Source of the DNA: Chloroflexota bacterium
GTDB taxonomy: Bacteria; Chloroflexota; UBA11872
NCBI GenBank assembly: GCA_022824865.1
Contig: JAJDZD010000022.1
Location: 36,115-100,114, forward strand
DNA: 64,000 nt
Direction of reading: 5' to 3'
This document shows, piece by piece, positions 1 through 53,406 of the stretch. Each line of letters begins with the position of its first letter. Within the stretch, counting starts at the first letter, position 1. The notes under the pieces were generated by a model. The model saw only the letters and a list, made by a program, of their open reading frames with translations. It made no database searches and was not told the DNA's origin. The position numbers were made by a program, and so were the translations under genes.

Positions 1-494
1 AACTCAGGAATGACGTTCATCTCTCCGAAGAGACCGTCGTACCCGGTGAAGTCGGCGAACATGTGGGCCTCATCCGGAAATTGCCAGCCGCCTTGGTGGA
101 GGGCGGCCTTATTCAGCGAGGCGTAGCAGATAGCGTCAAGGGCTCCCGCCGACGCGAGACCGATCATCTGCTTCAGCGTCTCGCCGCAGACTCGGCCGGA
201 CTCGGGTGAGACTCTGCCTCGCTCGATTTGGTCCGGATCTAGGTTTCCGAGGTCGACTACCGGCACGGTGCGGCGGGGCCAGGTCACTTCCGAGAGCGTC
301 TCGTAGACGTCGTAGGCGAATCTCAGGTTGGCGTCCCGCATGCCCTGCTCGAGGACGCGCACGTCACCGACGATCGCAACGCGAGCACGATCGCCGACGG
401 CCTTGGAGGCCATCGCTTTTACGGCAACCTCGGGCCCGATCCCCGCGCAATCGCCGAGCATAAGCCCGATCAGTGGCGGGTTGTTACCTGTCAC
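1..494 (-). CDS. PdxA-family dehydrogenase (4-hydroxythreonine-4-phosphate / D-threonate-4-phosphate dehydrogenase-like). Partial: the 3' end runs off the window, start is GTG at 494.
   Basis: Own translation of the minus strand from GTG (492-494): VTGNNPPLIGLMLGDCAGIGPEVA...GALDAICYASLNKAALHQGG..., with no stop before the window edge. This matches the conserved PdxA N-terminus (GDPAGIGPE) and the HK/NK region. It is absent from the ORF track because it lacks an ATG and is truncated by the window. Confidence 0.6.
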   Translation of the reverse strand, partial: MTGNNPPLIGLMLGDCAGIGPEVAVKAMASKAVGDRARVAIVGDVRVLEQGMRDANLRFAYDVYETLSEVTWPRRTVPVVDLGNLDPDQIERGRVSPESGRVCGETLKQMIGLASAGALDAICYASLNKAALHQGGWQFPDEAHMFADFTGYDGLFGEMNVIPE

Positions 495-654
495 ACCCGG
501 TCGCCTTTCGGTGCTGGCTCGCGTCTCCGTCGCGAGGGAGACGGGCCGATTCGGACACAGTTCGATAGTCGCTGACCGGACCGGCGCTTACAAATCCTCG
601 CGCGCCCGCTAAGGTGACGCGCGCCTGGAGGCCAGCCCAGCAAAGACGCAGCCC

Positions 655-2304
655 ATGCCACGCCTGGATCCTACGGAACTCGTGATCGGCGACGCGCCGC
701 AGTATTTCTTCGACAACGGCGTGGTCAGCGCCGTCGCCAACATCACCCGCACCGTGCACAGGCCCAGCAAGTCCCCGGCCAACCCCGTGATTCGGGCCGA
801 TCGACCCTGGGAGCACATCACCTACTTCTCGTTCAACGGCTGGCAGACCTGGCACGACGCGGAGACCGGGCGCACTCACTGCATGTACGAGGACTGGTGG
901 CTGGATCGCGACAAGCTAGCCCGCGGCGCAGGCGGCACCATTCACGCCTGGGCCAACGCCCGCATGCGCTACCTATACGCGCATTCCGACGACGGCGAGA
1001 CCTTTACCAAGCCACCCATGGGCGTGTTCAGCCACGACGGTGAAGACACCAACATCGTGATGGGATCGGAAGTCGACGGCTCGCCCCACTCGATGGGCCT
1101 GGTGCGCGACCCCTGGGAAAGCGACGACTCTCGTCGCTTCAAGGCCCTCTACTTTCACGTACCGCCCAGCGAGGAGGAGGTCGGCGGCGGAGTCGTTCGC
1201 CACGGCGTCTCGCCCGACGGCATTCACTGGACGCCGCTGGATGAGCCCCCGGTGGTCGGCGCCGAGCGTGCGCGCCTGGACGACACGGCCATCGTGGCCG
1301 TCAATCCTGAATCCCGCGCCTATCTCGCGATCACCCGCCATCCCTTCATGGTTGGCGCGCCCGATCCGATGCGTCTTCCGCCCCTGGGCCCAACCGGCGG
1401 CACGCCCACCTACGACGTTGCCACCGACCAGCCGGGCGGTCGCAACCGCCGCCGGGTCTTCATGATGGAAAGCGCCGACTTTCACCACTGGACCCGGCCC
1501 CGACTCGTGCTGGCCCCCGACCCCGACATCGACAATCTCGATACGTCGTTCTACGGCATGTCGCTCTACCGCGTCGGCGCCCAGTGGCTCGGCTTCATGG
1601 GCGTGTTCAACATGGTCAGCAACACCATGCACGTGGAGCTGACCCACAGCCGGGACGGGCGCAGCTGGCGGCGCGTGTGGCCGGGTCGCCCGTGGCTGGA
1701 ACCCGGACCGCCCGGCGCCTGGGATCAGTTCATGGTCAACGTCTCAAGCGCACCCATAACCGCAGACAACGGTGAACTCCGTGTCTACTACGGCGGTTCC
1801 CGCAATCATCACGACTGGTGGTTCGCCGGGCCGCCCGAGCAGTATGCCGGATCCAAGGCATGGGACCACCTGCCCGAGGTCAATGACATGAGCAAGGTCG
1901 GCTACGCCCTGGGCCTGGCCCGCATGCGGCGCGACGGCTTCGTGTCGTTGGACGCGGGACGCGAACGCGAAGGCCTCATCGTCACCGAGCCCATGGTCGC
2001 CCCCGGCGACCGCCTGCGCATCAACGCTTGCTGCCGCCCGGGCGGCTATCTGCGCGTTGAAGTCACCGACGCGCAGGACCGACCACTCACCGGCGCAGCC
2101 GAAGCCGACTGCGACGTGTTCGCCGGCGACGCCCTGGACCACATCGTCACCTGGAACGGCAGCCCAAACGTCCCCCACGCCAATCCCGGCGACCTGGATC
2201 CCCGCCGCCCCGGCGCTCCCTACCGCCGCCTCCGCTTCACCCTGCGGAACGCCGAACTCTACTCTTTCCAGTTCACCGCAGAGGACGCCGACTCGACCGG
2301 CTGA
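655..2304 (+). CDS. hypothetical protein, possibly a glycoside-hydrolase-like beta-propeller protein
   Basis: 549-aa ORF with protein-like composition (not Arg-rich). Motifs include VRDPWESDD and DRPWEH, and it is rich in W and D. I cannot assign a family confidently. Confidence 0.5.
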   Translation: MPRLDPTELVIGDAPQYFFDNGVVSAVANITRTVHRPSKSPANPVIRADRPWEHITYFSFNGWQTWHDAETGRTHCMYEDWWLDRDKLARGAGGTIHAWANARMRYLYAHSDDGETFTKPPMGVFSHDGEDTNIVMGSEVDGSPHSMGLVRDPWESDDSRRFKALYFHVPPSEEEVGGGVVRHGVSPDGIHWTPLDEPPVVGAERARLDDTAIVAVNPESRAYLAITRHPFMVGAPDPMRLPPLGPTGGTPTYDVATDQPGGRNRRRVFMMESADFHHWTRPRLVLAPDPDIDNLDTSFYGMSLYRVGAQWLGFMGVFNMVSNTMHVELTHSRDGRSWRRVWPGRPWLEPGPPGAWDQFMVNVSSAPITADNGELRVYYGGSRNHHDWWFAGPPEQYAGSKAWDHLPEVNDMSKVGYALGLARMRRDGFVSLDAGREREGLIVTEPMVAPGDRLRINACCRPGGYLRVEVTDAQDRPLTGAAEADCDVFAGDALDHIVTWNGSPNVPHANPGDLDPRRPGAPYRRLRFTLRNAELYSFQFTAEDADSTG

Positions 2305-2446
2305 TCCTACGGTCGCCTCCAGGCCCTCGGATCGCTCTTCGGTCTTGGTAAGCCAACAAAACTCGGCTAATTCAAAATCAGACTTTGAATCAGCCGACAC
2401 GCTGCCTTAGCAATCGCGTTGTTGCCCAGGCCGAGAATCGCTGCGG

Positions 2447-3181
2447 CTAGAGAGCTGACGCAGCGAGCAGCCGTCCTCGCTCAGGCCTGCTCATTCCGAC
2501 TCCCGCGAGTTGACTCACGTGCCACAACGTCGCCTGATTCGCCGTAATTACCGGCTTGCCCAGCGAGGCTTCCATGTCGCCGATGACCTCCGCCGTCCGC
2601 ATTCCCGTGCAGCTGATAAAGATAGCGTCCGCGTCGAGCCTGTTCACCCGTGACTCCACGATCTCCCGCGTCTCCGCCGGATCCACGGCTTCGATATCGC
2701 AACTGAGGTTCAGTCCAACCATGGCGGCCACCCGGAATCCAGAGGCTTCCAGGTAGGCGCGTAGCCGTTCGTTCAGGGCGTCGATATGCGGCGAAAGCAC
2801 AGCAACCGACTCTGCTCCAAGCGTTTGCAGGGCCTGCACGACGGCGGATGACGTCGTCGTCGCAGGCACGCCCGATGCAGTCGCCATCTGGTCAGTGATG
2901 GCCGCGTCGCCGCTGGGACCCAGCACGTAGCTGCCCGACGTGCATCCGTATGCCACGGCCCGTGCCCCGCGTTCAGCCAGACGCCGCGCCGCGCGCCCGT
3001 TCTCGGGATCCCGCGCCAGCCCCTCCACCAGCGCCAGTGTGATGTTCTGTTCCGGTTCCGGGTCCCTGCGGACGGATTCAATGTCCAATCGGACTCTTTG
3101 CGCGACAAACGCCTGGAGTTCCGCCCGGTGCCCATCCTGCACCGGCTCCGGCCAGACGATTCCGATTTGGCAACTATCCAT
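2447..3181 (-). CDS. Asp/Glu/hydantoin racemase superfamily protein (maleate isomerase / arylmalonate decarboxylase-like)
   Basis: The C-terminal 243 aa of ORF 2447..3727 (MDSCQIGIVWPEP...) are protein-like. The upstream 183 aa are Arg-rich junk. ATG 3181 lies 3 nt after the TAG of the upstream peptidase gene. The fold is a two-domain racemase-like fold (CTSGSY...ISCTG). Confidence 0.6.
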   Translation of the reverse strand: MDSCQIGIVWPEPVQDGHRAELQAFVAQRVRLDIESVRRDPEPEQNITLALVEGLARDPENGRAARRLAERGARAVAYGCTSGSYVLGPSGDAAITDQMATASGVPATTTSSAVVQALQTLGAESVAVLSPHIDALNERLRAYLEASGFRVAAMVGLNLSCDIEAVDPAETREIVESRVNRLDADAIFISCTGMRTAEVIGDMEASLGKPVITANQATLWHVSQLAGVGMSRPERGRLLAASAL

Positions 3182-3186
3182 GGCAG

Positions 3187-4392
3187 CTACCGCTCGATCA
3201 GCTCGCGCGGCCCGTGCGTCAGCACCTCGCAGCCGTCCTCGGTAATCACGCTCGTCTCGCTGAACGCCACCCCAAACTCCCCCAGCCGCCGCACGGCGAC
3301 CGGGTGGTGAAACACGACTCCTGGCTCCAGCACGCTGTCCGCGTCGCTTCGAATGAAGCCGGAACCGTCGGCCCAGTTCGGCGGGAATCCCGCCCCGATG
3401 CCGTAGCCGAACGTCCCGTGAAACACCAGGTCTTCGCCCGCGGCCTTCAGCTCGCGCCAGCCCGCGTCCGCCGCGTCGCTGGCGGCCACGCCCGGCCCCA
3501 TGGCCTCCAGGACAGCGTTGAGGGCGGCAAGGCACGCGTCGGCGGCCCCGCGAACCTCTGCCGAAGGCGGGCCGATGGTCAGCGTGCGCATCTGCGGCGC
3601 GGTGTAGCGCTGCACGCAGCCGCCGACTTCCAGCAGCACGTTGTCGCCCGACTGGATCGTGTGGCGCTTGTGCGTTGTGTGGAGCATCCCCGAGCGTCGG
3701 CCGCTGGTGACGATGGGCGAGAGGCACGGGTACTCGCTGCCGGCCCGTGCCATGGCTGCGAACGCAGCTCCCGCGACCTCGCCGTCAGATACGCCGGCCG
3801 CCGCGGTGGAGTTCGCGGCTGCCACCGCCGTCTGGGTAGCCACCGCCGCGCTGCGGATGTGCGCGATCTCGGCCGACGACTTGCGCCGCTTCAGCTCGAT
3901 CAGCAGGTCGGTCGCGTCGATGAGTTCCGCCAGCGGCAACGTGTGTGCCAACTCGGCGTAGAACGCTGTCGTCGCACCCCAGACGGCGCCGTCAAGTCCA
4001 ATGCGACCGCGTGTCAAACCGCGCTCGGCCAGGATTTGCGCCGCGTACGCCGGTCGCTCGATCTCCGGCGGGTACCCGTGCAGGTCGTCGAACCAAACGC
4101 CCAGCAGTGCCCCGCCGAACTCCGGCGGATCCATAGCGAGGGCCGGCTCGCCTTCCAGCGGCACCACCAGACACGCGCCGCCATCCACCGCGAATGTCTG
4201 ATATCCGGAGAGATAGAAGACGCTCGCCGGGTTCATTACCACCAGCGCGTCCAGCCCCTGCCCGTCCAGCGCATGTTGCGCCCGCGCCAGCCGTTCCCTG
4301 TACTCGGCCTTAGTGAACGCCGGCTCCGGCTCCAGGCCCGTCAGGCTCGTTTTGGGAAACGGTCCACCGCTCAGGCTGGCATGCACCCGCAT
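3187..4392 (-). CDS. M24-family metallopeptidase (Xaa-Pro aminopeptidase / creatinase-like)
   Basis: It has the creatinase/prolidase N-domain plus the pita-bread catalytic domain (HGTFGYGIGAGFPPNW, LEPGVVF). The likely start is the internal Met (MRVHASL...) at 4392. Confidence 0.7.
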   Translation of the reverse strand: MRVHASLSGGPFPKTSLTGLEPEPAFTKAEYRERLARAQHALDGQGLDALVVMNPASVFYLSGYQTFAVDGGACLVVPLEGEPALAMDPPEFGGALLGVWFDDLHGYPPEIERPAYAAQILAERGLTRGRIGLDGAVWGATTAFYAELAHTLPLAELIDATDLLIELKRRKSSAEIAHIRSAAVATQTAVAAANSTAAAGVSDGEVAGAAFAAMARAGSEYPCLSPIVTSGRRSGMLHTTHKRHTIQSGDNVLLEVGGCVQRYTAPQMRTLTIGPPSAEVRGAADACLAALNAVLEAMGPGVAASDAADAGWRELKAAGEDLVFHGTFGYGIGAGFPPNWADGSGFIRSDADSVLEPGVVFHHPVAVRRLGEFGVAFSETSVITEDGCEVLTHGPRELIER

Positions 4393-5626: not shown

Positions 5627-7027
5627 ATGGCCAGTCGCCCGAACATCCTGTGGATCGTCATGGACTCGCAGCGGCCCCACAACATCGGAGCCTACGGCGA
5701 TCCGAGAGGGGTCACCCCGGTCCTGGACCAGCTGGCGGCTGAGGGCGCTGTCTTCGAGCGCAACATCACCTCCGCGCCGTGGTGCCTACCCTCCCACGCC
5801 TCGATGATGACCGGCCACTACGCCAGCACTCACGGCGCCGACGGCCGGCACGAACGGCTGAGCGAGGAATACCCAACGATCGGCGAGGAGCTGACCGAAC
5901 TCGGCTACGCAACCGTGGGAATCTCCAACAACGCCTACATGAGCGCGTCGTCGGCGTTGCATCGCGGCTTCATGGACTGGAGCTACGTACTGCCGCCGCT
6001 GGGCGCGGCCGACCAGGACAAGGGCGGCGCCCAGGTGGTGCGGCAGATGCTGGACTGGCTGCGGGGGCACGAGGAGGACGAGCGCCCGTTCTTCATGTTC
6101 GTGAACATCAACGACACGCACACGGCGTACATCGCGCCGGAACCCTGGCACTCGCGCTGGGCGCCGGACGTCAGTCGCGAGGAGGCCCGCGAACTCAACC
6201 GGTCGCAAGGCGGTTTCGCCGATCCTTCGCGGATGGACGGGATGCCGGATGACGTGCGGGACAAGCTGTATGCGCTGATGGACGGCGAAGCGGCTTATGT
6301 GGACGACCTGATTGGCCGGGTGGTCAGCTACCTGCGGGATGCCGGGACGCTGGACGACACGATGGTGGTGGTGACGTCGGATCACGGCGACGTGATCGAG
6401 GAGCACCCGCCGTACTGGAACCACCAGTTGACGGTGTTCGAGGCCGTGGCGCACGTGCCGCTGATCGTGCGCTATCCGGCGGCGTTCGAGGCGGAGACCC
6501 GGATCTCGGCGCTTACGCAGACTCATGACGTGGTCGCCACAATTTACGACCTGATCGGGGCCGAGCGGCAGCTCGAGTGGCTGGGCGAGAGCAGCCACAG
6601 CCTGCTGCGCGCCCGCGACGGCGACGCTCGCAGCTATGCGCTGTGCGAGTTCGCGTTTCCCGTGAACATGCTGGAGCGCGTCACGCGCCAGGGCCGGGCC
6701 TTTGAGCTACGCCGCTTCTTCCGGGCGCAGCGGGCCTACTACCGCGACGAGTGGAAATACATCTGGACCAGCGACGGCCGCGACATGCTGTACAACCTGG
6801 CGGATGACCCGACCGAACAGGTAAACCTGTTTGAGAGCGAGAACGACCGGGCTCGGAAGTACTACCTGGAGCTGGAAGCCGTGCTGGGTCGCATCCCGGT
6901 GAACGATTACGGCGACTGGATGGTGACCGAGTACATGAAGGGCACGCCGAAGGAGAGCTGGGAGAAGATCCGGCGCTGGGGCTACCTACGACCGGGTCAG
7001 GCCGACAAGCCGGCGTTCCGCAACTAG
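5627..7027 (+). CDS. sulfatase-like hydrolase (alkaline phosphatase superfamily) with a divergent active-site motif
   Basis: NILWIVMDSQRP...APWCLPSHASMMTGHY...DTHTAY. GGAGGA lies 5 nt upstream of ATG 5627. The upstream in-frame part of the ORF (5501-5626) is Arg-rich. Confidence 0.8.
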   Translation: MASRPNILWIVMDSQRPHNIGAYGDPRGVTPVLDQLAAEGAVFERNITSAPWCLPSHASMMTGHYASTHGADGRHERLSEEYPTIGEELTELGYATVGISNNAYMSASSALHRGFMDWSYVLPPLGAADQDKGGAQVVRQMLDWLRGHEEDERPFFMFVNINDTHTAYIAPEPWHSRWAPDVSREEARELNRSQGGFADPSRMDGMPDDVRDKLYALMDGEAAYVDDLIGRVVSYLRDAGTLDDTMVVVTSDHGDVIEEHPPYWNHQLTVFEAVAHVPLIVRYPAAFEAETRISALTQTHDVVATIYDLIGAERQLEWLGESSHSLLRARDGDARSYALCEFAFPVNMLERVTRQGRAFELRRFFRAQRAYYRDEWKYIWTSDGRDMLYNLADDPTEQVNLFESENDRARKYYLELEAVLGRIPVNDYGDWMVTEYMKGTPKESWEKIRRWGYLRPGQADKPAFRN

Positions 7028-46263: not shown

Positions 46264-47292
46264 ATGCACGTCGCGCTGGTTATGGAGGCCGACGAACAGG
46301 GCCACAGGGCCTTCTTTCTGCAGGCGCTGCGCGACCTATCTCTGGTGGACTCGGTCACGGTCGTCGACGAATCCGGCGGCACCTTCGCCGAGGCGCGAGA
46401 GACGCTGGGACCCAAGCTGCGCGGAACGCACCACGAATTAGCGGACGGGCTGGCGAGCGCCGCGCCCGACCTGGCCATCGTCTCGCTAATCGCCGCGAAA
46501 GCGCCGCCAGCGGTTCGTCAATGTCTCGAAGCCGGCTGCCACGTCATGGTGGAGAAACCGGCCTGCACGCATCCCGACCAGTTCGCGGAACTGGTCGAAC
46601 TTGCCGAGCAGCGCGACCGCCACCTGATCGTTCCCCTGGCCCGGCGCCTCTGTCCCTGGGTCCAGGACGCCCGCCGCATCTTCGCGAGCGGCGCGCTGGG
46701 CCGGGCCTATGCGCTGCGGGGCGCGGTGATCGCCGACCAGGCGCGCATCTGGCCCGCGAACGGGGTGCGCGACTGGACCTTCAAGCGCTCGCTGGCGGGC
46801 GGCGGGCACCTGGTCTGGCTGGGGATTCACTGGATCGACATGATGACCTACATCACCGAGTCGCCGGTGGTGGAAGTCCAGGCCATGACCGATGTCGTGG
46901 GCGGCGCGCCCATCGACGTGGAGGACCTGGCGCTGGTCAACCTGCGCTTTGCCAACGGCGCCTACGGCTCGCTGGTCTCGGGCTATCTGCTGGACAAGCC
47001 CTACCAGCTGGACCTGAGTCTCTGGGGCTCCGATGGCTGGCTTCGCTTCGGAGCCTCCGACCGGCACCTGCTGGAGTGGCACTCCGCTTCGCCGGATCCG
47101 GGCGGCGTGCCGGACCGCCGCATCGCCTACAGTGGCCCTGACTTCGCCAACTACACCCCGTGGATCGACCGCACACTTCGAGCCTGCCTGGGCGAGCCGG
47201 CGCCAATCACCGGCGCCGAAGCCCTTGCCGCGTTACGGGTCGTTCACGCCGCCTATGAGTCGGCTGACGGCGGGCGGGCGGTTCGTCTCTAG
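46264..47292 (+). CDS. Gfo/Idh/MocA-family oxidoreductase
   Basis: N-terminal Rossmann region plus EKP motif (VMVEKP). Confidence 0.8.
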   Translation: MHVALVMEADEQGHRAFFLQALRDLSLVDSVTVVDESGGTFAEARETLGPKLRGTHHELADGLASAAPDLAIVSLIAAKAPPAVRQCLEAGCHVMVEKPACTHPDQFAELVELAEQRDRHLIVPLARRLCPWVQDARRIFASGALGRAYALRGAVIADQARIWPANGVRDWTFKRSLAGGGHLVWLGIHWIDMMTYITESPVVEVQAMTDVVGGAPIDVEDLALVNLRFANGAYGSLVSGYLLDKPYQLDLSLWGSDGWLRFGASDRHLLEWHSASPDPGGVPDRRIAYSGPDFANYTPWIDRTLRACLGEPAPITGAEALAALRVVHAAYESADGGRAVRL

Positions 47293-48092
47293 GCGCTGTC
47301 CCAGCGTCGCGGGCTGATGCCCGGGGCGCTGGTTCGCGGATCGATAGGCGGCATGCCCGGCTCGGCGTGCGTGGCCCGCTGGTTGCGGTCGCCGCACAGC
47401 TCGAGGACAGCGGGCGGGAGACTCGCCAGGACTTCGTCCGGCCACGGTTCCAGGTCCTGAACGGTCGGTCCGCACCAGGCCGGGCGGTACGACAGCGCGA
47501 TCATTTCGCGCGCCCGGCTGCCCGTGTTCGGCCCGTTGGCGTGGAACAACGCCAGGTTGATCACCACGGCCGTGCCCGCCGGCGCGGTGATGACAACCTC
47601 GTCGGGATGCGAGGGGTAGCGCTTGTAGGGGTTGGCGTCCGGGTGCATGGACAGGTGCGACCGTGGAATCACCCGCAACGGCGCAACCTCCGTCGTCAGG
47701 TCATCCAGGTAGTACAGCACCCGCACCTGCCGCGGCGCGCTGAAGGCGTAGCCCCAGTCGCTGGTCCCGTAGGGGTGGGAGTCGGTGTGCAGGTTCATGC
47801 CCGGATGCCCCGGCGCCGAGATGGCGTAGTGCGCATGCATGAACACCAGGTCAGGCCCCAGCGCCGCCCGCAGAAAACCGATCACCGGCGGGTGCGCGAT
47901 CAGATCCGTCACCGCCCCGCCAGCAAACTGCACGTCCGACTGCGTGCGCTGATGCTGGCTGTAGTGCACGGGCGTCGGATCCCAGGCCGCCGCCTGCGCC
48001 TTGAGTTGTGCCACGGTTTCAGCATCGAGCGTGGCGGGCAGCACGACGTAGCCCTCGACCTCCAGGCTGCGGATGCGCTGGCCGGTACTCAA
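47289..48092 (-). CDS. phytanoyl-CoA dioxygenase (PhyH) family oxygenase
   Basis: LHTDSHP (HxD) ... LFHANGPN. Confidence 0.75.
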   Translation of the reverse strand: MSTGQRIRSLEVEGYVVLPATLDAETVAQLKAQAAAWDPTPVHYSQHQRTQSDVQFAGGAVTDLIAHPPVIGFLRAALGPDLVFMHAHYAISAPGHPGMNLHTDSHPYGTSDWGYAFSAPRQVRVLYYLDDLTTEVAPLRVIPRSHLSMHPDANPYKRYPSHPDEVVITAPAGTAVVINLALFHANGPNTGSRAREMIALSYRPAWCGPTVQDLEPWPDEVLASLPPAVLELCGDRNQRATHAEPGMPPIDPRTSAPGISPRRWDSA

Positions 48093-48190
48093 TTCGGCCT
48101 AGGCCTGTTGATCTGCCAGCGGTTTGGCGCTCACTGCACGTCCTTGCTACGGGCGGGCAAGTAGGACCAGGGTAGGTATTCCAAGGGTCC

Positions 48191-48214
48191 CAGGCTACGC
48201 ACAGCCTGGGCCAC
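48191..48214. repeat. 24-nt conserved hairpin repeat, copy 1 (caggctacgcacagcctgggccac)
   Basis: Stem caggct/agcctg. Matches 50779-50802 at 22/24, and the 2 mismatches are in the loop. Confidence 0.55.
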
Positions 48215-48340
48215 CTGCCTGCCTGGCGAACCCCCATGGTCTGTCCCGTCCCTCGAATCTATACAAAGGTCTCCGAAGGCGGGAATCTTGCGGCCGGTGA
48301 ACCTGTGAGCCCGCGAGCGGGGGCGGTTCGCGAACCGCCC

Positions 48341-48706
48341 CTACATCGGGATGTTCTTCACCAGGCCGATCACCTGGCCCTCGGGGTCGGCGAAGATCCC
48401 GATGACCACCTCCTCCATCACTTCCATCTCCGGCATGATCACGCTGCCGCCCATGCTCGCGGCCTTCTCCAGGTACTCGGTCACGTCGTCCACGCCCACG
48501 TAGAACGTGACCCTGGTCGGTGGCTCGACATCCCCCATGCCCATGATGCCGCCACCGATGCCCGGACCCTCGCTGGGCGCGCTGACCACCCCGTAGCCCA
48601 TGGGATTGGCGACGTTGATCTCCCAATCGAAGAGATCGCCGTAGAACTTCTGCATCGCCGGCCCGTCCTTGGCGTTGATTTCCCAATGCACCACGCTATT
48701 CGCCAT
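48341..48706 (-). CDS. VOC-family protein (glyoxalase-like)
   Basis: The internal start MANSVVHWEINAKD is preceded by AGGAG. The protein is 121 aa. The upstream part of the ORF is poor. Confidence 0.7.
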   Translation of the reverse strand: MANSVVHWEINAKDGPAMQKFYGDLFDWEINVANPMGYGVVSAPSEGPGIGGGIMGMGDVEPPTRVTFYVGVDDVTEYLEKAASMGGSVIMPEMEVMEEVVIGIFADPEGQVIGLVKNIPM

Positions 48707-49128
48707 TTGAATGCTCCTATTCCGCGAGCTCACGGTCCGGTCCGATGCGGCCCGTGTGGCCGGCTTGCGCATGTGCGCCGTTCCGCGCGGAAACGCCCAT
48801 CCTATAGGGCCAACGCGCGTCAAGTGGTCGACACGGCAGGCACGATGCAGACCCTAAATCAGTTGGCTGACCCGTTCAGTAGGTAAACCCACGGAGTCGG
48901 TATGAGACGACCTTTGTGTCGTCGTTCATCGTGCCTGCTCCGTTGGTCGTTACGGCGTCCCTGGAGCGGCCCGGCTTCCCTCTCCTGTGGAAGAGGCCTT
49001 TGCGTAACCCAAGCTTGGTTGCCCGGAAGACCCCTCACCCCAACCCTCTCCCCCAGGAGAGGGATTAAGAGCGGACGCGCTTTCGAGATCGAGAGGCGCT
49101 TTGCAAAGGTCTCGTGGAAGGGATACGG

Positions 49129-49383
49129 CTAGGGTCTGCCCCGGACTCGATCCGGGGGGTGAGGGCAGTCGTGCATGGCCCGGTACACGTCTTCGCCGGT
49201 GATGGGCTCGGCATCGGGCGGCACGGCGAACATGCTGCCGTCTCCGCCGTCAGCGGCGGCCGCCGCGTTTCTGAACCCGCGCCGCGCCAACTCCGACAAG
49301 GCGCTGCCCAGGCTGATGCCACTCCGCTCAGCCAGCGCCCGCGCCACCGCCAAGACGTCGTCGATGGTTACTGTCGTTCGCAT
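49129..49383 (-). CDS. ribbon-helix-helix VapB-like antitoxin family protein
   Basis: MRTTVTIDDVLAVARALAERSGISLGSALSELARRG resembles the Rv0626-type VapB N-terminus. No PIN-domain partner lies downstream. Confidence 0.5.
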   Translation of the reverse strand: MRTTVTIDDVLAVARALAERSGISLGSALSELARRGFRNAAAAADGGDGSMFAVPPDAEPITGEDVYRAMHDCPHPPDRVRGRP

Positions 49384-49476
49384 ATCAACACCATTGCACC
49401 GCAGCATGGATTGTCCCTCCCGTCGGCGGGAGATAGATGCCGTGGACGCGGCGGCTCTCCGGTAGTTGAGTCACGT

Positions 49477-49923
49477 TTAGTTTCGGGGTGCTGATGGCCT
49501 TGGCCCACGCGATGGCAGATTGCGTGCTCCCTTGCTGAGATTGCAGCGGTCATGCGTCAGTTGCAGGTTGGAGACACGATCTGATCCGCCGTGGCTCCAC
49601 GGCTTGATGTGATCGATGTGGACGCCACGCGGATGCAACGGCAAGGGGCGGCCACATATCCCGCAGCGCCCACCATCTCGCCTGAGAAGCGTCAGGATAT
49701 GCCGGCGAATGAACCGGTCACGTCGCCGTGGTTTGGTAAGGATCCGACGATCCGGCGCAATTTGGGAAGGCTTCGGCTGTTCTGGCGCTCTCGGCCTGGA
49801 GGTTTTCTTCGGGGCGACTGTTTTCAAAGCCATCCAGAGAAACGCCCACAGTCCGGCAGAGGCCGCTCCCGCCTCGAAGCCTTCAGCCGCTGTTCCAGAC
49901 TGCGTCATGACCACGTATGTCAC
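49477..49923 (-). CDS. HNH endonuclease
   Basis: CGICGRPL...HIDHIKPWSHGGSDRVSNLQLTHDRCNLSKG is a complete HNH motif. The exact start is uncertain. Confidence 0.6.
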   Translation of the reverse strand: MTYVVMTQSGTAAEGFEAGAASAGLWAFLWMALKTVAPKKTSRPRAPEQPKPSQIAPDRRILTKPRRRDRFIRRHILTLLRRDGGRCGICGRPLPLHPRGVHIDHIKPWSHGGSDRVSNLQLTHDRCNLSKGARNLPSRGPRPSAPRN

Positions 49924-50316
49924 GTACGCAGCAGCGACAGCGACAATGGAGCACGGACACGCCTCGACCAGAGAGCAGGTCCGAATCCTGGGTCACCGAG
50001 TGATCAGATCCGTCCCACTTCGACTTCAAGGTTGCCGTTGACACGCCGAAGGCCGGTTCGCCATAGTTCGGGCACCGTGGGCGGCGGACACGCCGTTCGA
50101 GGCCTATCCTGGAAAGGACGGACCTTTCTGCACGGAGGATCGAGCATGGCCAGGGAAAGGGATACTGGTCAGAAGGACTTCAGCCATCTCGCACGGTCGC
50201 TGGTCGGCCATATGACGGACGACGAAGGCGCGGTGACCAAGGCGCTAACGGCTGCCGACCGAGCCGCCATCGCCCGTCGGGGCGAGCAGGCTCGGTGGGC
50301 CTAGCCGCCGGCATAC

Positions 50317-50505
50317 GTGCCAGTTCGAGTCCGTGAGGCGATTCGTCGCGTGGAACGCAAGGGTTGGAAGCACGACCGGACGAACGGAAGTCACCGGCAA
50401 TTCGTGCACCCCGTGCAACCTGGCACCGTGACGATTTCCGGAAAACTGTCTGACGAACTCCATCCGAAGACATGGGCCAGCATCAAGCGTCAGGCTGGCC
50501 TCTAA
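50317..50505 (+). CDS. hicA: HicA-family toxin (mRNA interferase)
   Basis: 62 aa, with GWKHDRTNGSHRQFVHP...GTVTI typical of the HicA/YcfA fold. Confidence 0.8.
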   Translation: MPVRVREAIRRVERKGWKHDRTNGSHRQFVHPVQPGTVTISGKLSDELHPKTWASIKRQAGL

Positions 50506-50515
50506 GGGAACCGAC

Positions 50516-50767
50516 ATGCGCTACCGAATTGAAATTGAACGGGGGTCGCGGAATTTTTCGGCGTACTCCCCTGACGTCGATGGCTGCGTTGCCACCGGGG
50601 CGTCGGAGGATGAGTGCCGTCTCAACATGGCCGAAGCCCTGGCATTCCACTTCGACGGGATGCTGCGACAGGGTCTTCCGCTTCCGCAGCCGCGCCCTTC
50701 GACCGATGTGGCTGGTGATTTGGTTGAAGTCTCATTGCACGCGGTCCCGGTGCCAATCACGGCGTAA
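50516..50767 (+). CDS. hicB: HicB-family antitoxin
   Basis: RYRIEIER...NFSAYSPDVDGCVATGASEDECRLNMAEALAFHFD is typical of HicB (UPF0150). It lies 10 nt after hicA. Confidence 0.8.
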   Translation: MRYRIEIERGSRNFSAYSPDVDGCVATGASEDECRLNMAEALAFHFDGMLRQGLPLPQPRPSTDVAGDLVEVSLHAVPVPITA

Positions 50768-50778
50768 GTGAATCAGGT

Positions 50779-50802
50779 CAGGCTGCGCGCAGCCTGGGCC
50801 AC
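50779..50802. repeat. 24-nt conserved hairpin repeat, copy 2 (caggctgcgcgcagcctgggccac)
   Basis: Direct repeat of 48191-48214. It begins 12 nt after the hicB stop. Confidence 0.55.
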
Positions 50803-51237
50803 ATGGCGCTTGCTAGTTGTCGCGACGCCCAGACGCAAACTGGCTCAACGCTGACCTACCATTCACTCGAGTCATGTCTGCTAGCAAGCCATACGCCTCG
50901 ACTGACGGACTTGCCAGCTCTGAGGGAGCTGACTGACATGCGTCCAGACTCCGATTCGAGGGCGATGCTGACAGCGTGGCGGCGAGAGAACCGCAAGGCG
51001 TGCCTCACCATCTTGGCTCTAGCGGCTGCGCTTCCGGTCTTCGCCTTCATCATCTTCGTCGTCGGCGCAATCGTCAGTGCCTGCGGAGCATGAGGCCAAA
51101 AGGTGTCCGTGGTTGATCGTTCTAGCGCCACCACGAGACGCTTCAGTTAGCGTCTATCAGACTCTCTCGCCCGCCTGTGTCCGCTCGTGGAGTCTCGATA
51201 GCCTCGCCGCGATTAGAATGCTGCGGAAATACCTTGA

Positions 51238-53406
<2,169 letters not shown>

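Follow-up and report, generated by a model that had tools for sequence, protein, structure and literature searches.

Hairpin repeats of a REP/RAYT family and the likely cassette array that they punctuate between the PhyH and katG genes of uncultured Chloroflexota

In a 64-kb stretch of DNA from a Chloroflexota bacterium (contig JAJDZD010000022.1, hereafter the window), two copies of a 24-nt hairpin lie 2.6 kb apart in the same orientation, with a VOC-family gene, a VapB-like gene, an HNH endonuclease gene and a hicAB toxin-antitoxin (TA) pair between them and the genes for a PhyH-family dioxygenase and KatG outside. Do these hairpins delimit a mobile unit that arrived as a whole, as the first-pass annotation of this sequence suggested when it described positions 48191-50802 as a small defence/TA islet bounded by REP- or att-like hairpins, or do they have another history? 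The repeat itself is not in doubt: CAGGCT[A/G]CGC[A/G]CAGCCTGGGCCAC is present at 48191-48214 and 50779-50802, both times on the + strand, no third match with up to 3 mismatches exists in the window, and a chance origin is ruled out by shuffled sequences, which give 0 expected matches. Described as units of a repetitive extragenic palindromic (REP) family, the two copies are as follows.

48188-48214, + strand: REP copy 1 (REP1), the full 27-nt consensus with two changes beside the loop, TCCCAGGCTACGCACAGCCTGGGCCAC
50779-50802, + strand: REP copy 2 (REP2), a perfect 24-nt core in which GGT replaces the 5' TCC

In a stack of 123 copies the full unit measures 27 nt, TCCCAGGCTGCGCGCAGCCTGGGCCAC, made up of CCAC and a perfect 22-nt palindrome; on the opposite strand this gives GTGG and then the 22-nt palindrome, as on the complementary strand of REP1. 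Conservation reaches three bases to the left of the 24-mer, the conserved unit being TCC plus the 24-mer. Scanning one genome per species for exact matches, with the two variable positions left free, I found the 24-mer at at least 118 loci, and this and the other locus counts of the scan are lower bounds. Among the matches listed there are about 26 Chloroflexota metagenome-assembled genomes (MAGs), one of them with at least 14 exact copies, and all but four of these matches carry the label Chloroflexota or Chloroflexi or, for one MAG, 'bacterium'. The 24-nt core is identical across the about 26 species-level genomes among these matches, and the housekeeping genes there differ by 8-15%. Of the four loci labelled otherwise, three are proteobacterial and represent coincidences within coding sequences, and one looks mis-binned. 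This last contig (L027, JAJDUK010000074.1) is binned with the Alphaproteobacteria, and the 3' flank of its REP is exactly that found in L013 and L106, two Chloroflexota contigs of the same study; probably it was placed in the wrong bin. From isolate names only, which resemble those of sponge-study bins, I infer that many of the source MAGs are sponge-derived. In the window, nhmmer with a profile made from the 123 copies found elsewhere detected no further convincing copy.

The copies are extragenic: of 152, no more than 6 fall within coding sequences that were called with confidence and that make up 66% of the DNA (p = 5e-60; the crude GC3-based caller used for this masking overlooks accessory genes of low GC content, e.g. 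hicA and HNH, and served for confident core coding sequences only), and both copies of the window are intergenic. The genes on either side are in tandem for 45 copies, convergent for 38 and divergent for 12. Adjacent copies form 29 direct pairs vs. 8 inverted ones (p = 8e-4, for pairs that are not phylogenetically independent), and one contig, L127, has 8 copies within 6.5 kb. In one subfamily a diverged, inverted partner precedes the REP by about 20 nt, and this REPIN-like doublet folds at -39 kcal/mol (z = -5.7); the two copies of the window are singlets. The repeat is a REP family that is new to the literature searched, in which work on REPIN and RAYT systems was found and no description of this repeat or of REPs in sponge Chloroflexota. 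Other REP-like families coexist in these genomes, for instance a hairpin, GGGCGGCCCTTGTGGCCGCCC, that adjoins REP doublets (L056, about 6010-6050). Tandem gene duplications with a REP at their ends or joints were seen as well, with two sulfatase paralogues in L046 (2118-5838) and, in L020 (about 1-4150), with PhyH-like paralogues and a 108-nt tandem array, and these are reminiscent of REP-mediated duplications.

The family comes with a transposase. A screen of all open reading frames (ORFs) in the fetched loci yielded, in L039, a Y1-transposase-like protein that passes the NCBIfam equivalog REP_Tyr_transpos (NF047646) with 93.3 bits against a cutoff of 80, and that has a secondary NCBIfam match to IS200. 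This REP-associated tyrosine transposase (RAYT) has a REP on both sides, one of the flanking copies with compensatory changes in its stem. Its orthologues on independent contigs, 75-82% identical, have the 27-mer REP on both sides within about 25-200 nt, and the bracketing is seen on at least 4 distinct contigs (L039, L127, L128, L129-131): exact copies on both sides in L127, three copies per side in L128, and in L129-131 a compensatory variant upstream and another copy 2 nt past the stop codon. The RAYT loci that were fetched sit among ordinary chromosomal genes in different MAGs. A RAYT that is 60% identical (L132/L133, about 2860-3700) is flanked by a different palindrome with the GTGG kept, GTGG-CCCGACCGG...CCGGTCGGG, which is the pattern expected if a RAYT and its own REP co-evolve. 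The repeat is thus the cognate REP of a RAYT, i.e. of a Y1/HUH transposase. Systems of the REP/RAYT kind are already known in Chloroflexota, since Group 4 RAYTs are common in the Caldilineae, a class of Chloroflexi (PMC5581495). In the window itself, neither a motif pattern nor BLASTP with an E. coli RAYT sequence picked out a Y1 transposase among the ORFs of 90 aa or more in all six frames.

Like the REP/BIME elements of E. coli and their RAYT (TnpA-REP), the family consists of short extragenic palindromes with a conserved 5' tetranucleotide (GTGG here, reportedly GTAG in E. coli), has many dispersed copies with a bias towards the 3' ends of genes, and includes a Y1/HUH gene flanked by its own REPs. 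It differs from E. coli REP in its phylum, in its sequence and its perfect 22-nt palindrome core, in the exact 24-mer that about 26 species-level MAGs among the matches listed have in common, and in its copy number, which so far amounts to tens (a lower bound) instead of hundreds. With the REPIN-RAYT systems of Pseudomonas and Enterobacteria (Bertels and Rainey; PMC3116915, PMC5581495) it shares an inverted-doublet subfamily with a long hairpin and RAYT loci between ordinary chromosomal genes. Unlike REPINs, the copies of the window are singlets, and direct-orientation REP arrays between gene cassettes were not met for REPIN-RAYT systems in the literature examined.

Could the hairpins instead be functional signals in RNA or DNA, such as terminators, mRNA stabilisers or insulators, so that their position at the ends of cassettes is a by-product? 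REP1 is located downstream of the VOC gene, REP2 starts 11 nt past the stop codon of hicB, the family as a whole is biased towards convergent and tandem gene ends, and the REP is conserved above its surroundings. However, neither hairpin was called as an intrinsic terminator and both lack a T tract; as single hairpins they do not exceed shuffled GC-rich sequence in stability (z = -1.2 to 0.06); the non-palindromic tail points the same way in both copies, although the genes upstream of them are on opposite strands; and the association with a RAYT would be left unexplained. A signal role therefore seems very unlikely to me as the reason for their location. The predicted loop has 4 nt in copy 2 and 6 nt in copy 1, and only one of the two variable bases, both of which had been assigned to the loop, lies there, the other being part of the loop-closing pair. 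A known RNA family was considered and rejected, as Rfam gave two sub-threshold matches (whalefall-1 and a frameshift element) that I take as noise.

What the hairpins separate becomes visible when the locus is compared among eight related genomes, whose syntenic loci have 85-92% nucleotide identity. In the layouts below, which are given in the orientation of the window, R marks a REP and r a degenerate one, and LR-R denotes a REP that comes after a diverged copy, 100-186 nt long, of the PhyH 5' end plus its upstream region; ORF52 is a 52-aa ORF that precedes hicAB, and TM51 a 51-aa membrane-like ORF.

L119: PhyH, TM51, katG, with neither REP nor cargo
L095: PhyH, R, VOC, vapB remnant, katG
L036 and L073: PhyH, R, VOC, vapC-vapB, LR-R, TM51, katG
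L134: PhyH, R, VOC, LR-R, ORF52-hicA-hicB, r, LR-R, katG
L021: PhyH, R, VOC, vapC-vapB, R, TM136, ORF52-hicA-hicB, r, LR-R, katG
L043: PhyH, LR-R, hicA 3' end and hicB, r, LR-R, VOC ...
Window: PhyH, R, VOC, vapB, HNH, ORF52-hicA-hicB, R, TM51, katG

In the relatives a REP stands at nearly every cassette junction, always in the one orientation, and vapBC, ORF52-hicAB and HNH have been gained or lost independently of each other. The first-pass annotation had set its islet against the case of a common REP without any relation to boundaries; a common dispersed repeat it is, but unrelated to boundaries it is not. I consider it likely, and hold this view with reasonable though not full confidence, that repeats of a REP/RAYT family stand at the junctions of a variable cassette array in a hot spot between PhyH and katG, and that the window represents one state of this array.

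The two copies of the window would have had different histories. An orthologue of REP1 is located between PhyH and VOC in L021, L036, L061/L134, L073 and L095, and in L043 between PhyH and the inserted hicB cassette; seven species-level relatives have REP1 together with VOC in the corresponding place. No block of the spacer between PhyH and VOC is better conserved than REP1, and directly 3' of it the homology between two sub-clades switches. REP1 is an old, orthologous copy. The left flank of REP2, aatc[a/g]ggtCAGG, also precedes the degenerate REP after hicB in L021, L043, L134 and L135, from which it follows that REP2 belongs to the 3' end of the hicAB cassette. In the same four loci a second REP is present 100 nt beyond the degenerate one, and REP2 of the window is probably a merger of two such REPs by a REP-to-REP deletion. 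The region 48041-48226, i.e. the PhyH 5' end, its upstream region and REP1, has a second, diverged copy beyond the cassettes in L021, L036, L073, L043 and L134 (100-186 nt aligned, about 72-76% identical), of which the window keeps only the REP core. Both the window and L095 lack the vapC gene, and in the PhyH tree they form a group.

The comparison also provides an empty site, which is an argument for the opposite view, namely that the segment integrated once as a unit, by site-specific or Campbell-type recombination, and that the hairpins are what remains of attL and attR. In L119 about 290 nt separate PhyH from a small ORF that is followed by katG, and no REP is present there within 4 mismatches; firm homology with the window ends at 48077 and resumes at 50915, so that the extra DNA is, conservatively, 48078-50914. 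In a neighbour-joining (NJ) tree of PhyH, rooted with two homologues of 72-73% identity, L119 branches outside the seven occupied genomes, which fits one ancient gain, with a loss in L119 as the alternative. The GC content is lowered across the block (0.60-0.65 over about 48.2-51.3 kb vs. 0.67-0.71 in the flanks), and in L036 and L073 the block lies between direct repeats of about 180 nt that include a dead 5' fragment of PhyH, which points to homology-driven (Campbell-type) integration or duplication and not to precise transposition. However, an integrase or recombinase gene was found neither in the ORFs of 46.2-53.4 kb, using Pfam and NCBIfam, nor in any of the relatives' versions of the block. 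The bounding repeat is the genome-wide REP of at least 118 loci and not specific to this insertion, internal REPs part cassettes that vary independently, and of the long repeat the window retains only 27 nt. The 24-mer is also absent from the 2.9 million viral contigs of IMG/VR, and a phage att site was discarded as a candidate on this account. A single integration of the whole is thus highly improbable. As an integrase is absent, the bounding repeat genome-wide and the variation of the cassettes independent, 48191-50802 is not a classic island; the DNA between the hairpins is accessory, but it is an old composite patch and not one delimited mobile unit. Of the islet originally proposed, the accessory character thus survives, as L119 lacks the segment and the other relatives carry differing cassettes, and so does the REP nature of its hairpins, while its unity and an island-specific att site do not. 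The label 'defence islet' is not supported, with only TA genes and one HNH gene behind it and no integrase.

Alternatively, the RAYT may have moved the segment as a composite, by excising the single-stranded DNA between hairpins of the same orientation and inserting it beside another REP in the fashion of IS200/IS605. The geometry fits, with direct-orientation hairpins and their GTGG tail around the cargo; the RAYT gene itself lies between same-orientation REPs in L039, L127 and L128; and hicAB is found on the other side of VOC in L043 as compared with L021, L134 and the window, each time bounded by REPs. The resemblance to IS200/IS605 and their palindrome-associated derivatives extends to the subterminal position of same-orientation hairpins and to the Y1 transposase family. 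However, the duplications run 100-186 nt past the REP into unique sequence, including coding DNA of PhyH, and flanking duplications of such length indicate homology-driven events and not the precise ends made by a Y1 transposase. Unlike IS200/IS605, the segment has no tnpA or tnpB inside, and only single cassettes recur, not the whole unit. A cassette is also found without REPs (L136), no identical unit of REP, cargo and REP was seen at two unrelated loci, and a RAYT was not found in the window. Transposition of the composite thus has only a very slim chance of being correct.

If the REPs are indeed the junctions of a cassette array, the following course of events could account for it. The RAYT would disperse REPs into intergenic DNA, where they, together with the 100-186 nt of duplicated sequence next to them, would constitute portable homology; ordinary recombination between REP regions could then insert, delete and reorder small cassettes, and TA addiction may favour their retention. 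In the window, REP1 and VOC are old and orthologous, vapC has been deleted and vapB orphaned, and HNH and ORF52-hicAB are located between vapB and REP2. That recombination at portable REP homology shuffles the cassettes is inferred, and a second, independent locus is consistent with it. In L056 a Phd+PIN cassette is located between two copies of a 176-nt repeat that contains a REP doublet, and in L089, too, REP copies occur on both sides of a Phd+PIN cassette. The locus of the L056 type has a single doublet and no cassette in L054 and L015, and the cassette with the right-hand doublet only in L038. REP pairs also enclose genes of the antitoxin families MazE (L110) and DUF433 (L044), and a Phd-family gene adjoins a REP in L030.

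Several observations weigh against an array with REPs at its junctions. Because of intergenic divergence the breakpoints relative to L119 can be placed only to within about 110 nt of either REP, and the polarity of the empty site is taken from one single-gene, unbootstrapped NJ tree. Matches to TA families amount to 9 of 150 non-core ORFs near REPs vs. 3 of 150 far from them (Pfam), an about 3-fold difference that is not significant (p = 0.14), and an enrichment of TA genes at REPs is retained as a trend only. An unrelated chromosomal locus, in L136, also carries ORF52-hicAB, with no REP nearer than 10 kb, and the junction between vapB and HNH in the window is without a REP. The genome to which the window belongs is known from these 64 kb only, with two REP copies and no RAYT found, and its membership in the REP/RAYT system is drawn from relatives. 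It is not among the loci listed by the scan for the 24-mer, and an exact look-up of HicB turned up a single identical contig, of 2.4 kb, in Logan. Finally, the REPs may merely survive in permissive intergenic DNA, as opposed to recombination taking place at them.

At the other extreme, same-orientation REPs could be active portable recombination sites, and the TA, VOC and other small genes an exchangeable array, with as agent either RecA, acting on the REP and the adjacent duplication, or the RAYT. This I consider unlikely, but if true, active REP sites would make a functional analogue of an integron that is built on a REP/RAYT system. Chromosomal integrons, such as the Vibrio superintegron with its TA cassettes between VCR/attC sites, are similar to the present locus in their arrays of small, often promoter-bearing cassettes, in the same-orientation hairpin repeats that separate these, and in a content and order that vary among relatives. 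In contrast to integrons, IntI was not found, the 27-mer has by inspection no attC R''/R' core (GTTRRRY), the repeat occurs genome-wide and is tied to a Y1 transposase, and the genes are on both strands. An attC or integron identity was rejected, core motif and integrase both being absent. The minimal mobile elements of Neisseria consist of fixed flanking genes with small, strain-variable cassettes between them, which are replaced by homologous exchange and have short repeats at their junctions. The PhyH-katG locus has the same fixed pair of flanking genes, variable cassettes and repeats at the junctions; unlike in Neisseria, natural transformation and the neisserial repeat families are not involved, and the recombination is proposed.

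The features of the segment and its flanks, apart from the two REPs, are the following.

47289-48092, - strand: PhyH-family dioxygenase gene, conserved left flank (Pfam PF05721, E = 6e-18)
48041-48226, no strand: PhyH 5' end, upstream region and REP1, with a second diverged copy in relatives
48341-48703, - strand: VOC/glyoxalase-family gene (Pfam PF00903, PF18029)
48704-48990, no strand: conserved non-coding region upstream of VOC (blastn)
48993-49113, no strand: second dispersed repeat of about 110 nt, core hairpin CCCTCTCC-CCCA-GGAGAGGG
49129-49383, - strand: orphan VapB-type antitoxin gene (RHH), 83-84% identical to the relatives' VapB
49477-49923, - strand: small stand-alone HNH endonuclease gene (Pfam PF01844, E = 3e-13)
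50038-50067, + strand: promoter-like site upstream of ORF52-hicAB, TTGACA, 18-nt spacer, CATAGT (consensus match only)
50146-50304, + strand: ORF52, the 52-aa ORF before hicAB, open in L021, L126, L134, L125 and L136
50317-50505, + strand: hicA toxin gene (Pfam PF07927, E = 4e-16)
50516-50767, + strand: hicB antitoxin gene (Pfam PF15919, E = 4e-7, profile positions 1-60 of 123)
50938-51093, + strand: TM51, the 51-aa membrane-like ORF, conserved right flank (tblastn)
51283-53406, + strand: katG catalase-peroxidase gene, conserved right flank (Pfam PF00141, E = 5e-72)

Pfam thus bears out the families given earlier for VOC, HNH, HicA and HicB between the hairpins and for PhyH and KatG outside. 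The PhyH product is 91-94% and the KatG product 92-97% identical to the homologues in relatives. The VOC product is 96-97.5% identical in relatives, 7 of 8 of which carry the cassette, and L005 holds a copy with 87.5% identity, whose flanks are unlike the PhyH-katG locus. Blastn blocks that span VOC and the stretch upstream of it are about 90-93% identical in L021, L036, L043, L061, L073 and L095. What had been described as a 400-bp structured non-coding stretch resolves into this upstream region and the dispersed repeat of about 110 nt, which folds no better than shuffled sequences (z = -0.65) and has only a weak sub-threshold match in Rfam; inverted-repeat arms are present at 48977-48996 and 49045-49064. 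The repeat gave 34 high-scoring segment pairs in 21 sources, counting the window and the identical contig L124, i.e. 19 other loci, with four copies each in L085 and L059. It occupies the site of the lost vapC, and in L021 it lies in the opposite orientation beside vapC.

The RHH gene, for which a VapB-like product had been suggested, matches no family of Pfam or NCBIfam itself, and it is its identity to the VapB of relatives that upholds the assignment: in L021, L036 and L073 the homologous VapB gene overlaps and precedes that of a TIGR00028 VapC. A VapC was not detected in the window by tblastn, so that the VapBC pair is incomplete and the RHH gene encodes an orphan VapB. None of the syntenic relatives has the HNH gene, for which there are 3 homologues among 5.8 billion proteins; it is a rare, lineage-specific addition. 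One homologue, with 95% identity, sits on a short contig whose arrangement is the same, and another, 76% identical (L125), adjoins an ORF52-like gene, with genes for PIN and ankyrin-repeat proteins near and no REPs. A weak match to a terminase large subunit about 3.5 kb from this second homologue (L125, 3143-4453; 8001-8489) suggests that the HNH gene of the window may derive from a prophage remnant or have phage ancestry.

Upstream of hicAB, L021, L134 and L136 retain the promoter-like region along with the cassette. ORF52, which had been listed as a possible ORF, is probably a real small gene, given that it is kept open in five other loci. Both ends show conservation (RDxGQKDFSxLARSLVG... 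and ...ERAAIARxGGxARWA), and the middle varies freely; relative to L021 it has 3 synonymous and 18 non-synonymous codon changes, compared with 19 and 8, respectively, for hicB. It accompanies hicAB in L021, L134 and L136 (L136, 4577-5252), and a longer form is found beside the HNH homologue without hicAB (L125, 7567-7878). The gap between hicA and hicB is 10 nt, and as adjacent toxin and antitoxin genes the two constitute a type II TA system of the HicAB type. HicB is short, with 83 aa and the N-terminal domain only, and it is a speculative thought that the ORF52 protein could supply the missing function.

On the right-hand side, TM51 is found at the same position in L036, L073 and L119 with 47-55% identity; upstream of katG no homologue was found in L021 and L095, and none was called in L134. 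A motif, GATAGCCTCGCCGCGATTAGAATGCTG, is located at 51197-51223, about 60 nt upstream of katG, and recurs with few substitutions in L021, L073 and L134 despite the variable DNA upstream of it, with a weaker look-alike in the spacer of L119; it may be a promoter or operator of katG. On the left-hand side, the convergent junction of GFO and PhyH (about 47289-47292 in the window) is a second hot spot, at which the window has no insert. Different inserts of about 2 kb are present there in L043 (2435-4452; a DUF433-like ORF and then a 133-aa ORF) and L036 (4412-6698), both flanked by direct duplications of 232-418 nt of the GFO 3' end and both without a REP.

Nothing in these findings requires a new mechanism. 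They provide a well-documented case of a REP/RAYT system outside the Proteobacteria, in uncultured Chloroflexota. For the annotation of this sequence they mean that the hairpins are better not labelled as att sites and that the RHH gene is to be entered as an orphan VapB. The PhyH-katG locus, with its empty site, several combinations of cassettes and one reordering, forms a compact natural series on which one can examine whether REPs contribute to the shuffling of small accessory genes or are just markers of permissive DNA.

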